IMG/VR virus record: IMGVR_UViG_3300042876_000027
Coordinates: 5,768 to 69,767 of that record
Origin: a virus
Length of the DNA: 64,000 bases
Direction: 5' to 3' (one strand)
Below the pieces are notes generated by a model, which was not told the DNA's origin, did not search any database, and saw only the letters and a program-made list of their open reading frames with translations. The position numbers and the translations under genes are program-made. Of this stretch, positions 53,768-64,000 are shown one piece after another. Every line of letters begins with the position of its first letter. Within the stretch, counting starts at the first letter, position 1.

Positions 53768-54026
53768 CAACACGCCCAGGGGTCAGCTTGACAAACTGAC
53801 CTCTTCGTGAGCGCTCCGTTTTGTTATATTTCTGTTATGAATAAACTACGATCTACATTGATAAATGTCGGTGGTATATGCTAAGTTATAGGTATGGAAA
53901 CAAAGAGCAGGAGCAGTGGCTTTAGAGATACCGCTGGTCGACACGGCGTGAGAGAAATGTAGAATACATCTCAATGTCACACCCCCACAATAGAATAGAT
54001 TTATCAAAAGAAAAGGAAAGAAACAA

Positions 54027-54203
54027 ATGAGCGTAGTAGTAACCTTCAATGACGGCAAGACCATCAACCCTATCTTTGAGCCAACACCTCGTAACCTAGT
54101 AGCAGTAAAGGAATTCTACCTTGACCTACTAAACAAGAATGAGATTTATCACTTCTCAATTACCTATGACAACGGCGATGTATTTGCTCAGGGTCGTCTA
54201 TAA
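54027..54203 (+). CDS. hypothetical protein (58 aa)
   Basis: own promoter and SD; below the ORF-track cutoff. Confidence 0.6.
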   Translation: MSVVVTFNDGKTINPIFEPTPRNLVAVKEFYLDLLNKNEIYHFSITYDNGDVFAQGRL

Positions 54204-54316
54204 TGAGGGAGTTTGTATCTGAGTGGCTATGGGTTATCCTGGCTACCCTCGGTCTAGTGGGCTATGGGGCATTCCAGATAGCCCTAGCAATACAGGGAAT
54301 GGGTGGGTTCGCATAG
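54203..54316 (+). CDS. small membrane peptide (37 aa)
   Basis: TAATG coupling; hydrophobic. Confidence 0.5.
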   Translation: MREFVSEWLWVILATLGLVGYGAFQIALAIQGMGGFA

Positions 54317-54433
54317 TGTCGGACCCCTCAGAGCGCCTCGATCGTTATAATTCTGTTACCAGAATAGGCGTGTTTAAGTAGATAAATGTCGTACCCCTAT
54401 GATAGGTTATAAGTAGTTAGAAAGGATAAGCAA

Positions 54434-54652
54434 ATGGCTAAAGGAATTGAGTGGGTAGTAACAGGTAAGACCGAAGACGGCACTGTTTACCGAGGTGTTC
54501 AGGTTGCTTGGTATGGTCACCCTGCTATGGACTTTTTCGCAAAGCGTAAGGGTGTAACCTTTGTTACCTCTTGGGCAGAGAAGAAGTTTCACTTTGACAA
54601 CTTCCTAGAGAAGGGTCTTCGTGAGCCACTAACGGAAGCAGAACTTTCGTAA
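54434..54652 (+). CDS. hypothetical protein
   Basis: promoter motif 48 nt upstream; SD AGAAAGGA. Confidence 0.7.
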   Translation: MAKGIEWVVTGKTEDGTVYRGVQVAWYGHPAMDFFAKRKGVTFVTSWAEKKFHFDNFLEKGLREPLTEAELS

Positions 54653-54814
54653 CCAACGGCGTGTCGACTTGACAAGTCCACGCTTTCGGAGCGCCCAGCA
54701 CAAGATCTAGTAGCTTACGAGGTTTAAGACACTAGATCTAGATCCCCCAGAATGTTACCAATTTGTTACCAAAAAACACTTGACAGTGTCAGACCTATCT
54801 GATAGGTTATAGGT

Positions 54815-54934
54815 ATGAAGAAAGCAAGAATGACTAAGTCAGAAAAGCAGTGGTTCCGTGCCCAGGACTTCCGCACCCTTGAGGGCGAAGACCTACAGCG
54901 TTGGTTTTATCTTTGGGCAAATAAGACCTATTAG
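54815..54934 (+). CDS. hypothetical protein (39 aa, leaderless)
   Basis: ATG 29 nt after promoter motif. Confidence 0.5.
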   Translation: MKKARMTKSEKQWFRAQDFRTLEGEDLQRWFYLWANKTY

Positions 54935-54977
54935 TGTCTGACCCCTCTGGTAAACTCAAATCAAAGAAAGGATAACT

Positions 54978-55100
54978 ATGTATCACTGGAATGACCAATA
55001 CTATGAAGCCGAGTGTGTCGAGTGTGGCACCGAGATTTTTGGTAAGACAATTGCCGAAATGGATAAGCAGGTTTCGCAACACGCCTGCACCAATTGCTAA
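54978..55100 (+). CDS. small CxxC protein (40 aa)
   Basis: SD AAAGAAAGGA; CVEC...CTNC. Confidence 0.55.
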   Translation: MYHWNDQYYEAECVECGTEIFGKTIAEMDKQVSQHACTNC

Positions 55101-55150
55101 TAAATGTCTGACCCCTATGCTAGAGTTTTAGTAAATCGAAAGGAAATGAA

Positions 55151-55315
55151 ATGAACAAGTTTGAGAATGTAGACGCAGACCTTCGTATCTGTGCTTACTG
55201 TATGGACACTACTTACTCGTATGTCTGCCCTAACTGTAATGAGTATGACGGACTAATGCCGTTCACCACTAGCACCGAAGAGTATCTGGGTGTAGACTTG
55301 CTAGAGTATCTCTAG
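55151..55315 (+). CDS. small zinc-ribbon protein (54 aa)
   Basis: CAYC...CPNCNEYDG; SD GAAAGGA. Confidence 0.6.
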   Translation: MNKFENVDADLRICAYCMDTTYSYVCPNCNEYDGLMPFTTSTEEYLGVDLLEYL

Positions 55316-55365
55316 TAAATGTCTGACCTATGTGCTAGATTAGTTTTAGAAAGAAAGGATAACTA

Positions 55366-55557
55366 ATGTTCAAGTCACTAGTTTTCAACCCATACATCGG
55401 AACTGGCTCTACCCTCGCAGAAATCGAGACCGAGTTGGAGTCACTACTCAAGTATGCCGAAGAGGTATTGGATTGGGACATCACGGAAGAGGAAACTCGC
55501 CGTCTAACCCTACTAACCAGACTAGCCAAGTCAATGGGTTCAACCAGAAAGTGGTAA
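55366..55557 (+). CDS. hypothetical protein
   Basis: promoter and SD. Confidence 0.65.
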   Translation: MFKSLVFNPYIGTGSTLAEIETELESLLKYAEEVLDWDITEEETRRLTLLTRLAKSMGSTRKW

Positions 55558-62126: not shown

Positions 62127-62129
62127 GCC

Positions 62130-62158
62130 ATAGACCTAGGCAAGTCTATAAACTGCCT
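62130..62158 (+). ncRNA. H-type pseudoknot motif, copy 5
   Basis: TAGAC ct AGGCA a GTCTA taaac TGCCT. Confidence 0.7.
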
Positions 62159-62322
62159 GCCCTCGTGGCTTGACAGCTGATCGAGTTCGTGGCGCTCCAG
62201 ATATACAATCATCCAAACCTTAATTACGAACACTAATTATTTTTCCCTAAATTGGCGTGTCGCTCTTTACAATGTCTGACCCCTATGGCATAATAGATAC
62301 ATCAAGAAGAAAGGCAACCCTA

Positions 62323-62535
62323 ATGACAATCTTTATCGCAAATCAGAATGGTGACTGGTGGGAGTATGACCCAAAGGATGTCCTCTATGTCTTAGATACT
62401 GATGACCTACCAGAAGAGGTGGCAGAGGAGTGGCGTGAAGACGACGGCAGCATCACTTGGACTGACTGGGATGTAGTCTATGAGTATGGCAAGACAGTTT
62501 CTCAGTCTGTAGTTGTTGAACACTACGAGGCATAA
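62323..62535 (+). CDS. small acidic protein
   Basis: promoter and SD; start refined. Confidence 0.65.
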   Translation: MTIFIANQNGDWWEYDPKDVLYVLDTDDLPEEVAEEWREDDGSITWTDWDVVYEYGKTVSQSVVVEHYEA

Positions 62536-62720
62536 TGATAAAGACTTATAGGTTTATTAATGACTATGCTGTCATTACCTTTACCGTGCCTGGTGAGGCA
62601 GATTGGTCTGAGGAGATGTGGGATTCAGCAGCACAGGCTGACCTAGAGTCCTATGTCACTACCCCAGAACAATACTACATGGATGATTGCTTTGACACAG
62701 AAGATTTTATAAATGTCTGA
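62535..62720 (+). CDS. small acidic protein
   Basis: TAATG coupling. Confidence 0.6.
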   Translation: MIKTYRFINDYAVITFTVPGEADWSEEMWDSAAQADLESYVTTPEQYYMDDCFDTEDFINV

Positions 62721-62846
62721 CCCTACCCCTATAATTGGTTCTATGAATGAATGGAAGAACCCTAATCTAATCAATGAAGATGTTATCAAGAGCCTTACCC
62801 CTGACCAACTGAAAAGGTTGTCAGAGATTCTAGCAAAGGTAAAGTA

Positions 62847-63080
62847 ATGGAACTCTACAAGTGTAATCACGAACACTTAGAATGCCCCAATCACGGAGGG
62901 GCATTTGACTGTAATCCTTTTTGTCGAACCTGTGAGGGTGACCAAGAGTATTGCCCAGAAGGTTGTGAACCTATCGCTTGTAACACTTGCTGTGTGTATG
63001 GTTACATCGATGTCAAACTAACTAAACTAGAAGATGATTTCTACCAATGTGAGGAGTGTCTCAATGAGTCTTTACTATGA
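62847..63080 (+). CDS. Cys-rich protein
   Basis: CPNHGGAFDCNPFCRTCEG. Confidence 0.65.
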   Translation: MELYKCNHEHLECPNHGGAFDCNPFCRTCEGDQEYCPEGCEPIACNTCCVYGYIDVKLTKLEDDFYQCEECLNESLL

Positions 63081-63378
63081 TACCTATTCAGATGGAACTA
63101 TCTATCTTAATAAGATAAAGGGTGATCCGCTTGATTTCTATAGATGTTCTGGCTGTTGGAAGATGTGGAAGTCTACCGCCAAGAAAATGGGACACAAAGA
63201 AGCAGCCTGTAAGAAGAATAGATAAATGTCAGAGGGTAGGGGTATAGTATGACTATGAAAAAATATTTGGTTACTTATGTATGTGAGTATGAAGTAGAAG
63301 CACTAGACGAAGACGAGGCTATTGACCTAGCACTAGAGTATCACGCACAACTACCTGACGGAGTATGGGAGGCAACAA

Positions 63379-63591
63379 TTGTTGAGTAAAGACGCAGACT
63401 ATGTAACCACTGAGCAACTAGCAGAACACCTGCTAGGAAGACTAAACGAACTAGTTCCACACTACAACGAACTAGACATCAACGATAGTTCTAAGGACTA
63501 TTTCAATGGGCTTATCAACGCCTATGAGAATGTTCTTATGGCTATCGGCTACCCCTATGACGAACTACCAAAGTATGAGGATGTATTCTAA
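63379..63591 (+). CDS. hypothetical protein
   Basis: SD GGAGG before TTG start. Confidence 0.55.
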   Translation: MLSKDADYVTTEQLAEHLLGRLNELVPHYNELDINDSSKDYFNGLINAYENVLMAIGYPYDELPKYEDVF

Positions 63592-63696
63592 TGGCAACTG
63601 AAGCAGAACAAGCAATTTGGAAATGGGTTACTGAGAACCTAGACTATGACGGTTTCAAGAGGATGCAGCGTATGTTTGCTCCTGTGGAGAGTGAAG

Positions 63697-63873
63697 ATGA
63701 AGAGTAAAGAGATTGCCAAGTATGCTAGGATGGCTAGTAATGAGGCACACGAAGAGTGGATGGCAGAGTTCAACAGTTATACCAGAGACTTGATTTCAGA
63801 AATGATTGACAAGTTTGATACTATTGAGGCTATGGCTAACCGCAAGTGGTATCACAAGTTTCTCAAGGGGTAG
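63697..63873 (+). CDS. hypothetical protein
   Basis: MKSKEIAK start behind GGAG; followed by a hairpin. Confidence 0.5.
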   Translation: MKSKEIAKYARMASNEAHEEWMAEFNSYTRDLISEMIDKFDTIEAMANRKWYHKFLKG

Positions 63874-64000
63874 GCAAGTCCTGCCCCTTTGGGGAGCGCC
63901 CCCAAGATCTTATGTAAAGTAGTTAACCTTCAAAATATCTTTACGAACCTCTTGACTTTTTCCCCAGTTTCTGGAATAATATAGCTATGGAAAAGAAATT

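Follow-up and report, generated by a model that had tools for sequence, protein, structure and literature searches.

The 64,000-nucleotide stretch of phage DNA analysed here (the window; positions 5,768 to 69,767 of IMG/VR record IMGVR_UViG_3300042876_000027) belongs to a genome record, designated G000, that is a 69.8-kb fragment of a genome of probably 90-113 kb. Towards the right end of the window lies an array of small early-type gene cassettes, which holds twelve copies of a short box, GAGCGCY. The box is the asymmetric 7-mer GAGCGCC and its palindromic core is RGCGCY. Seven of the boxes are in forward orientation, four are in reverse and one, GAGCGCTC, is palindromic; the twelve sites give 13 matches over both strands, every one within window positions 53809-63900. 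These sites and their spacings (522, 358, 894, 740, 948, 605, 975, 866, 1251, 1223 and 1703 bp) are exactly those listed in a preliminary description of the window. Because relative L001 (91-95% identical) has no further box in the 7.9 kb past the end of the contig, the twelve boxes probably constitute the full set. The array and its boxes are as follows.

53809-63900, + strand: array of small early-type gene cassettes holding all 12 boxes (map of open reading frames, ORFs, and motif scan)
53809-53816, no strand (palindromic): box 1, GAGCGCTC; the predicted stem ends at the box
54331-54337, + strand: box 2, GAGCGCC (motif scan and stem prediction)
54689-54695, + strand: box 3, GAGCGCC, after a hairpin whose loop holds CTTGACAA
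55583-55589, - strand: box 4, GGCGCTC on the + strand (GAGCGCC on the - strand)
56323-56329, + strand: box 5, GAGCGCC; homology to L001, L002 and L003 breaks 4-14 nt away
57271-57277, - strand: box 6, GGCGCTC on the + strand, abutting the hairpin CCTCCCC-TTT-GGGG
57876-57882, + strand: box 7, GAGCGCC; the hairpin CTCCC-TTCG-GGGAG (57865-57878) ends with its first 3 bases
58851-58857, - strand: box 8, GGCGCTC on the + strand, after the hairpin CCCC-TTCG-GGGG
59717-59723, + strand: box 9, GAGCGCC, after CTCCC-TTCG-GGGAG and followed by GATCGATC
60968-60974, + strand: box 10, GAGCGCC, upstream of the DUF932 gene; homology blocks shared with L002 and L003 end or start at most 18 nt away
62191-62197, - strand: box 11, GGCGCTC on the + strand
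63894-63900, + strand: box 12 (last), GAGCGCC; it can be the loop of a second stem, TTTGGGG/CCCCAAG (63888-63906)

The boxes are exclusive to the array. Both the 5.8 kb of genome that precede the window and the window's first 53.8 kb are free of GAGCGCY. The number of boxes is weak evidence alone, as 13 matches compare with 6.78 +/- 2.88 in shuffled sequences and at least 13 were reached in 4 of 100 shuffles. RGCGCY was counted genome-wide, as the preliminary description had proposed, and all 12 copies in the 69,767-bp genome fall inside the array, so the motif is not equally frequent elsewhere. The tetramer GCGC occurs 54 times, and its 39 copies outside the array all lie in a TGCGC/GCGCA context; none of these 39 is part of RGCGCY, against an expectation of 5.0 under a 4th-order Markov model to 22.9 under a 1st-order model. 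GGCC, CCGG and CGCG are all absent from the genome (125.6, 64.0 and 49.9 copies expected, respectively), as are GRCGYC, CYCGRG, GRGCYC, CCTNAGG, GCATGC, GAGCTC and CTCGAG, and CATG is strongly depleted (145 against 328 expected). Since short GC palindromes are avoided to such an extreme degree, the twelve boxes are deliberate exceptions in a genome otherwise removing such words.

The gaps that carry a box share a common order of stop codon, hairpin, box, usually GATC, TTACGACACG, an A-rich stretch, TTTCCCCC and promoter. The hairpins often display a C-rich arm, a TTCG or TTTG loop and a G-rich arm, and those located by the preliminary description near 57262, 57865, 58841, 59706 and 63884 are present. 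The predicted stem ends between -3 and +4 nt from the box in 12/12 gaps, with modest shuffle z-scores of -0.1 to -5.3. A run of at least four Ts follows the box in a single gap (1/12), so the GC-rich hairpin with U-tract that defines a canonical intrinsic terminator is not the arrangement found, and a consensus scan located 8 terminator-like sites with a T-tract in the array versus 8.5 in shuffles. GATC, previously described only as nearby, is positioned at most 25 nt downstream of the box in 9/12 gaps and upstream in 1/12 (background 0.036; P about 2e-11), while the accompanying statement that it is often GATCGATC was overstated, this sequence having just 2 copies in the array. The box-to-GATC spacing varies from 2 to 12 nt, a range on which a fixed geometry of the kind expected from one two-domain enzyme was rejected. 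GATC also stands 3' of boxes in relatives that carry other words, for example GGCGCCccgatc and GGTCGATccgatcc (L072, L110, L006, L008), and looks like a second motif that is unchanged between lineages. TTACGACACG has 4 copies in the genome, 4/4 of them in the array. Column identity across the aligned gaps averages 33% while the word is invariant, which excludes plain descent of a repeat.

The promoter of these gaps consists of a -35-like hexamer fused to a conserved ATGTCNGA element, then a TG-extended -10, in a sigma-70-like arrangement, and is separated from the box by 56 to 82 nt in the window and by a distance near zero in the compact gaps of L110. About eight other promoters of the array begin right at the preceding stop codon, without hairpin or box. 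The earlier statement that a box occurs in each large intergenic gap holds for the 12 hairpin-bearing gaps and fails as a rule for every junction. Because the promoters that lack a hairpin also lack a box, the box belongs with the unit-closing hairpin and not with the promoter.

58908-58936, + strand: example of a gap promoter, TTGACA, 17 nt, TG-extended AATAAT, with the ATGTCNGA spacer element
59767-59795, 61044-61072, 62266-62294 and 63952-63980: further gap promoters of the same kind
55104-55145, + strand: example of a compact promoter running from the preceding stop codon (TAA|ATGTCTGA...), without hairpin and without box
55319, 55828, 56589, 59167, 60155, 62713 and 63226: further compact promoters

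The relatives of this phage are freshwater phages, distant kin of the Streptomyces BE phages, and they carry a different word after the hairpin at the same position. At least 15 word types were recognized among 158 loci, by hairpin-anchored and gap-enrichment approaches; promoter-anchored motif discovery proved too noisy. The words in relatives include GGCGCC, KGCGCA, GGCC-containing words, ATCGACC/GGTCGAT, GGTCGGGC, GCCCGACC, GGCGAGCC, GGTACC, GCCGACC, CCCGAG(C), GTCGAC, GGCGAGC(C), CGCGCC, GCGGCCC, CCGGCC, GGGCCC(C) and GACGTC. The window phage has 12 copies of its word and the relatives have 7-21 of theirs. In 12/12 long contigs examined the own word is confined to one array of 8-16 kb, as detailed below by the copies in the array over the copies in total.

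G000, GAGCGCC: 11/11, plus the palindromic GAGCGCTC site (GAGCGCY strand matches 13/13)
G001, GGTACC: 14/15
G002, GGCGCC: 17/17
G003, ATCGACC: 10/10
G004, GCCCGACC: 13/13
G006, GCCGACC: 9/9
G007, GGCGAGCC: 8/8
G008, CCCGAGC: 14/14
G010, GGGCGCA: 12/12
G011, GGGCCCC: 21/21
G012, GACGTC: 6/8; the other 2 lie just across the junction, and IMG/VR flags terminal repeats on this contig
G013, GTCGAC: 7/7

For the six shorter words about 32 sites in total would be expected outside the arrays and 1 was observed. In a matrix of words by genomes the own words outside the own array sum to 3, of which 2 are the wrap-around copies of G012; permutations gave a mean of 18.3 (P=0.027). Wherever a genome's word is asymmetric, copies run in both directions, with strand matches of 8/5, 6/4, 10/3, 3/5, 4/10 and 3/9. 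The signal at the level of DNA that the preliminary description had drawn from the mixed orientation of the boxes therefore extends to all such relatives. Conservation in relatives, which it had proposed as a further test, spoke in favour of a function: the position is conserved and the word is absent elsewhere in the genome, while the word itself changes by lineage. No wider symmetric operator (TGTC...GACA, as in phage Samisti12, see below) was found around the boxes, whose flanks are just G-runs and C-runs. Separately, words of the AGGTCC/AGGACC/GGTCCA type reach 17-41 copies per locus in L099, L100, L109, L110 and L095, in stretches that are non-coding after masking of ATG-initiated ORFs, and probably mark a repetitive gene, perhaps collagen-like, or a region of tandem repeats.

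The word is exchanged as a set. Its type can differ between phages whose DUF932 proteins are 94-98% identical, and in the colinear loci L098 (GTCGAC) and L092 (GGCGAGC), which share 80-90% nucleotide identity, the orthologous gaps that were compared keep their flanks while the word alone is exchanged. Neutral drift and gene conversion of the whole repeat were both rejected as causes, as neither would alter just 6-8 bp in every gap. G005 and G006, whose DUF932 proteins are 97.6% identical, were set aside as a clean pair for this comparison, being mosaic and 76-91% identical in patches only.

The kinship with Streptomyces phages provides a cultured point of comparison. The portal protein of the window is ~49% identical to that of the Streptomyces cluster BE phages, and the DUF932 protein of the array (61044-62126, 360 amino acids) is 54-56% identical to the product of gene 2 of BE phages, a gene that is present twice per record. 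Direct terminal repeats of about 11 kb are described for BE1 phages (PMC5764925), and the array is probably the counterpart of this repeat, as judged from its gene content; no end repeat was seen in the window's contig itself. At the left end of Streptomyces phage Samisti12 (BE1 cluster) lie ~20 small genes separated by gaps of 100-190 bp, each with a stop codon, a TTCG-loop hairpin, a near-palindrome resembling TGTCGGGCCCGGACA and a promoter. With at most 3 mismatches, TGTCGGGCCCGGACA has 13 occurrences in 750-9919, each with its counterpart in 123794-132963, and none in the ~113 kb between these terminal repeats; a reversed control pattern has 3 matches. The element thus shares with the boxes the grammar of hairpin, GC-rich element and promoter, the confinement to an array and the homologous DUF932 gene. 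In contrast to the boxes, which are exact words of 6-8 bp, it spans 15 bp and is near-palindromic and degenerate (0-3 mismatches). Because the Samisti12 element is confined to both terminal repeats, the grammar is, judged from this comparison, old and terminal-repeat-specific. The near-palindrome looks like a dimer operator and, by analogy, would support binding. No published description of the Samisti12 element was found in the portions of the literature that a search made available.

We tentatively read the boxes, at what we regard as somewhat less than an even chance, as DNA-level sites for one co-evolving, sequence-specific trans-acting factor that marks the boundaries of transcription units. 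A single reader of double-stranded DNA is suggested by the identical word in each hairpin-bearing gap, its purging from the rest of the genome, its use in either orientation and its concerted replacement between lineages; the same four facts exclude chance, plain repeat descent and a purely structural role in RNA. Each lineage would place its private word of 6-8 bp directly after the unit-closing hairpin of its early array and purge it elsewhere. The factor would be a protein encoded by the phage and would bind the box as an operator, an insulator or a roadblock. Once bound, it would keep each cassette an independent unit or would silence the array when the early phase ends. It would also co-evolve with its sites, much as repressors and stoperators do in Cluster A mycobacteriophages.

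The stoperator/repressor system is, by analogy, the closest known one. Stoperators are asymmetric and 13-14 bp long. They are described as repressor-binding sites that stop transcription elongation, with a divergence of the motif that tracks the divergence of the repressor (PMC6550527, PMC9283540), and as sites distributed genome-wide in predominantly one orientation relative to transcription (PMC6550527). The likeness lies in many copies of one genome-specific short motif that differs between related phages, in actinobacteriophages in both cases. In contrast, stoperators belong to temperate phages with a known repressor and occupy the genome at large in one main orientation, whereas the boxes are exact over 6-8 bp, run in either orientation, are tied to hairpins, stay within one array of 8-16 kb (12/12 contigs) and come with no repressor or integrase that was found.

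Several points weigh against a trans-acting boundary factor. The first concerns its identity. A clustering of 11,849 ORFs, drawn from the window and the 158 loci, yielded no family that followed the word type in either presence or identity, most of the contigs being incomplete; a small family with few pairs gave the largest 'same-type' effect, of 16 identity points. Comparison of the near-colinear G013 and G007 over their whole contigs likewise gave no credible candidate. Their non-homologous stretches hold tetrapyrrole methylase-like, trypsin-like, carbamoyltransferase and epimerase/dehydrogenase (sugar-metabolism) genes, together with Hsp20, ferritin and 2-oxoglutarate (2OG)-oxygenase genes and ORFs without a Pfam match. 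Nor did Pfam reveal a repressor or an integrase in the window (78 ORFs) or in G003 (56/103 referable ORFs), and the same scan found no methyltransferase or restriction-enzyme family and no recombinase. The words themselves, exact over 6-8 bp and without degenerate copies, resemble sites of an enzyme (restriction enzyme, methylase or nickase) rather than operators. A roadblock right after the hairpin would, moreover, be expected to halt RNA polymerase with the hairpin still untranscribed, a geometry that suits simple roadblock termination poorly.

Individual genes were also considered as readers, and none was convincing. A replication-module gene whose products are 51% identical between G013 and G007 is a 2OG-oxygenase-like paralog that is absent from most genomes. 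A 54-amino-acid zinc-ribbon protein with four cysteines (55151-55315) and a very basic protein of 76 amino acids (60696-60926) show 85-99% identity among same-word phages, and their identity does not exceed 79% at any other locus examined, whether typed or untyped. Their conservation is graded, as shared ancestry predicts, and the family of the 76-amino-acid protein has 35 members only and is missing from many word types. Both may be weak candidate nucleic-acid binders, with a pattern that possibly reflects shared ancestry alone.

The exactness of the words and their genome-wide purging would suit an enzyme, and the boxes could instead be sites at which a lineage-specific nickase cuts the DNA, in the virion or during replication, much as T5, phiKMV-like phages and phage tf are nicked. 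Nicks between terminal-repeat cassettes could then stimulate recombination between repeats or stop transcription, and copies inside genes would be selected against. We consider this unlikely. The virion nicks of these phages resemble the boxes in being short specific motifs at a limited number of sites that differ by phage group, and the confinement of the boxes to a probable terminal repeat agrees with such a role, as does an HNH/NUMOD4/HTH endonuclease encoded at 3661-4200 in the window's genome. The major nicks of T5 are quoted as R/GCGCRGG, with the role of such nicks described as still unknown (PMC3517423), and it was the GCGC of this consensus that led the preliminary description to link the boxes to T5. 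That link did not survive closer comparison: 0/12 boxes fit R/GCGCRGG, none being followed by RGG on either strand, and the words of relatives (GGTACC, ATCGACC, GCCCGACC) are unrelated to it. The resemblance is, from the motifs compared, a lineage-specific coincidence. The nick motif of phage tf is reported on the top strand only and the nicks of phiKMV-like phages in the non-coding strand (PMC3517423), whereas the boxes lie on both strands and every genome with an asymmetric word mixes its orientations. The HNH gene is not a conserved partner, as no HNH-family match occurs among the 56 G003 ORFs scanned, and the Samisti12 element is degenerate, unlike a nick site. Less probable again is that the boxes are part of mobile terminator-promoter modules that act as crossover points for the shuffling of cassettes between co-infecting phages, the private word setting which phages exchange cassettes or being the target of a recombination enzyme. 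Such modules would match the promoter-early stem-loop cassettes (PeSLs) of T4-type phages, composites of a stem-loop and an early promoter between small variable genes that are implicated in indels and gene swapping (PMC2839356, PMC4122927). Recombination at the boxes had been raised in the preliminary description, and the breakpoints support it weakly: in a hand tally, 11 of the 70 internal ends of homology blocks between phages with the same word (L001, L002, L003) lie at most 20 nt from a box, with ~2.7 expected, and such ends recur at the boxes at 56323, 60968 and 63894. A loose contig end at 54674 similarly runs into a variant with a different box and then a DnaA box, the assembled contigs matched at 85% likeness being fragmentary and from mixed strains. 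The other 59/70 block ends lie elsewhere, many of them at promoters or gene starts (+87 to +145) or at gene ends, and block ends at gene boundaries are expected anyway. Homologous recombination, by which alone PeSLs are explained, needs no exact 7-bp word and leaves the purging and the exact word amid diverging flanks without an explanation. PeSLs are neither purged from nor confined to one part of the genome, the available passages of their descriptions mention no private word between stem-loop and promoter, and no recombinase was found in the ORFs scanned.

It is very unlikely that the box acts at the level of RNA or structure, as a GC-rich extension or a second stem-loop that aids termination at a U-less hairpin or the stability of mRNA 3' ends in an actinobacterial host. 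The box does abut or overlap the 3' arm of the hairpin, the G- and C-run flanks of many boxes give palindromes of 8-16 bp (for example GGGGGTACCCCC and GGGGCGGCGCCGCCCC), box 12 can form the loop of its own stem (63888-63906) and T-tract terminators are not enriched in the array. A structural role, on the other hand, gives no reason for an identical word per genome, for purging or for concerted switching, and asymmetric words in both orientations would yield different RNAs. The boxes at 56323 and 62191 have no G/C-run flanks, in L013 the box stands behind a T-tract that itself follows the hairpin, and an Rfam scan matched no family. The remaining explanation, to which we attach the least probability, is that the words are host restriction-modification sites kept on purpose as sensors of methylation state or as decoys, with a host enzyme as the reader. 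The extreme avoidance of short GC palindromes such as GGCC, CCGG and CGCG would agree with it, and the box words are largely absent from the genomes of other phages too. Many words also coincide with well-known type II sites or with half-degenerate versions of them (RGCGCY, GGTACC, GGCGCC, GGGCCC, GTCGAC, GACGTC and CCCGAG). However, the description as a short, palindromic, otherwise avoided word holds for RGCGCY, GGTACC, GGCGCC, GTCGAC, GACGTC and GGGCCC and fails for GCCCGACC, GGCGAGCC and GCCGACC, which are not palindromic or restriction-like. The retention of 8-21 cleavable sites would defeat the avoidance, the words of G013 and G007 differ, yet outside the arrays these two genomes hold similar numbers of the few box words compared, and no methyltransferase was found by Pfam in the ORFs scanned.

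A boundary factor that reads the word might also be part of something broader, although this we hold to be doubtful: a fast-switching 'private word' address system, in which a re-targetable, enzyme-like factor (a nickase, a terminator factor or a silencer) would read the word of each lineage in its terminal repeat. Switching would be driven by competition between related lytic phages, a form of heteroimmunity without lysogeny, and the system would be common to abundant freshwater actinophages and cultured Streptomyces BE phages.

The remainder of the window encodes a siphovirus-type structural module with a tape measure protein of 2790 amino acids, a portal, a protease and a capsid protein, together with DnaB, DnaG, the HNH/NUMOD4 endonuclease and about nine 2OG-Fe(II) oxygenase paralogs. 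The oxygenase paralogs (prolyl 4-hydroxylase-like; 34017-38888, 45667-46790 and 51887-52555) adjoin tail-fibre and collagen-like genes, and in relatives this family is a hotspot of divergence and gene replacement even within the conserved replication module. The endonuclease gene (HNH_3, NUMOD4 and HTH; 3661-4200, - strand) is free-standing between a helicase gene and tail genes, and is likely a mobile homing-type endonuclease because of the absence of an HNH-family match in G003 noted above. A megablast search of the array against a phage collection gave no match. IMG/VR relatives are numerous, with contigs up to ~113 kb, and 19 of the 21 sequencing runs listed with the sequence are labelled freshwater metagenomes. 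G003 (107 kb, rated 99% complete) encodes WhiB, DnaE, a class Ib ribonucleotide reductase, ThyX and RtcB. According to PMC10202952, WhiB is exclusive to Actinobacteriota and serves as a marker of actinophages. Because of the WhiB gene in G003 the host is probably a low-GC freshwater actinobacterium, in agreement with the Streptomyces-phage kinship, a PASTA domain and leaderless-like starts; a cyanobacterial host, first guessed from the set of avoided sites, was rejected once WhiB had been found. The set of avoided tetramers differs between relatives, which suggests that their hosts have different restriction repertoires.

Further elements of the array accompany the boxes. The motif CGACACGCC/GGCGTGTCG is confined to the array, occurs in both orientations and is the same across lineages (5/5 copies in the array in G000, 11/11 in G003 and 8/8 each in G002, G007 and G013). 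It is positioned ~30 nt 5' of the promoter or directly upstream of the -35 hexamer and is probably recognized by a second, conserved factor. Many relatives have, in their first gaps, tandem copies of the perfect DnaA-box consensus (TGTGGATAA, with an 11-bp period) 3' of the box, and this consensus is array-confined in G008 (14/14), G010 (11/11), G002 (8/8), G001 (10/12) and G003 (5/5). The window's genome has no perfect DnaA-box consensus and carries degenerate GTTAT-N6-GTTAY pairs at the same place. Two extended -10 elements (TGATAGGTT) are followed 6 nt later by an ATG without a Shine-Dalgarno sequence; the ORFs concerned, of 39 and 45 amino acids, look like leaderless mRNAs, as common in Actinobacteria.

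55568-55576, 56358-56367, 57297-57306, 57902-57911, 58875-58884 and 59737-59745: CGACACGCC/GGCGTGTCG copies in the window include these
L011 2497-2560, L072 681-740 and L110 3629-3700, with further examples in the arrays of G008, G010 and G002: tandem DnaA boxes
53817-53845, 54338-54365 and 54730-54760: degenerate GTTAT-N6-GTTAY pairs in the window
54800-54817 and 55675-55692: extended -10 elements, TGATAGGTT

No published description of this box system was found in the accessible portions of the literature on nicked phages, stoperators, PeSLs, freshwater actinophages, Samisti12 and other BE phages, and intergenic motifs with restriction avoidance. In kind, the boxes would belong with the multi-copy regulatory sites of phages that co-evolve with their reader; what is unusual is the private exact words, the at least 15 switches, the restriction to the probable terminal repeat and the coupling to hairpins. 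The grammar of hairpin, private word, GATC, CGACACGCC and promoter in the early region, probably the terminal repeat, is hereby defined for widespread uncultured freshwater phages, likely of Actinobacteria. Because cultured Streptomyces phages share it, the question can be tested at the bench. If one factor reads the words, then its recognition specificity and its full set of targets changed together at least 15 times within one phage group. Such a system would be useful for studying how the specificity of DNA binding or cutting evolves and a possible source of re-targetable proteins that read short words. An address system of this kind, if real, would also offer an experimental handle on T5-type nicks and on the pre-early regions of terminal repeats, and the word type could mark phages that share regulatory compatibility or immunity.

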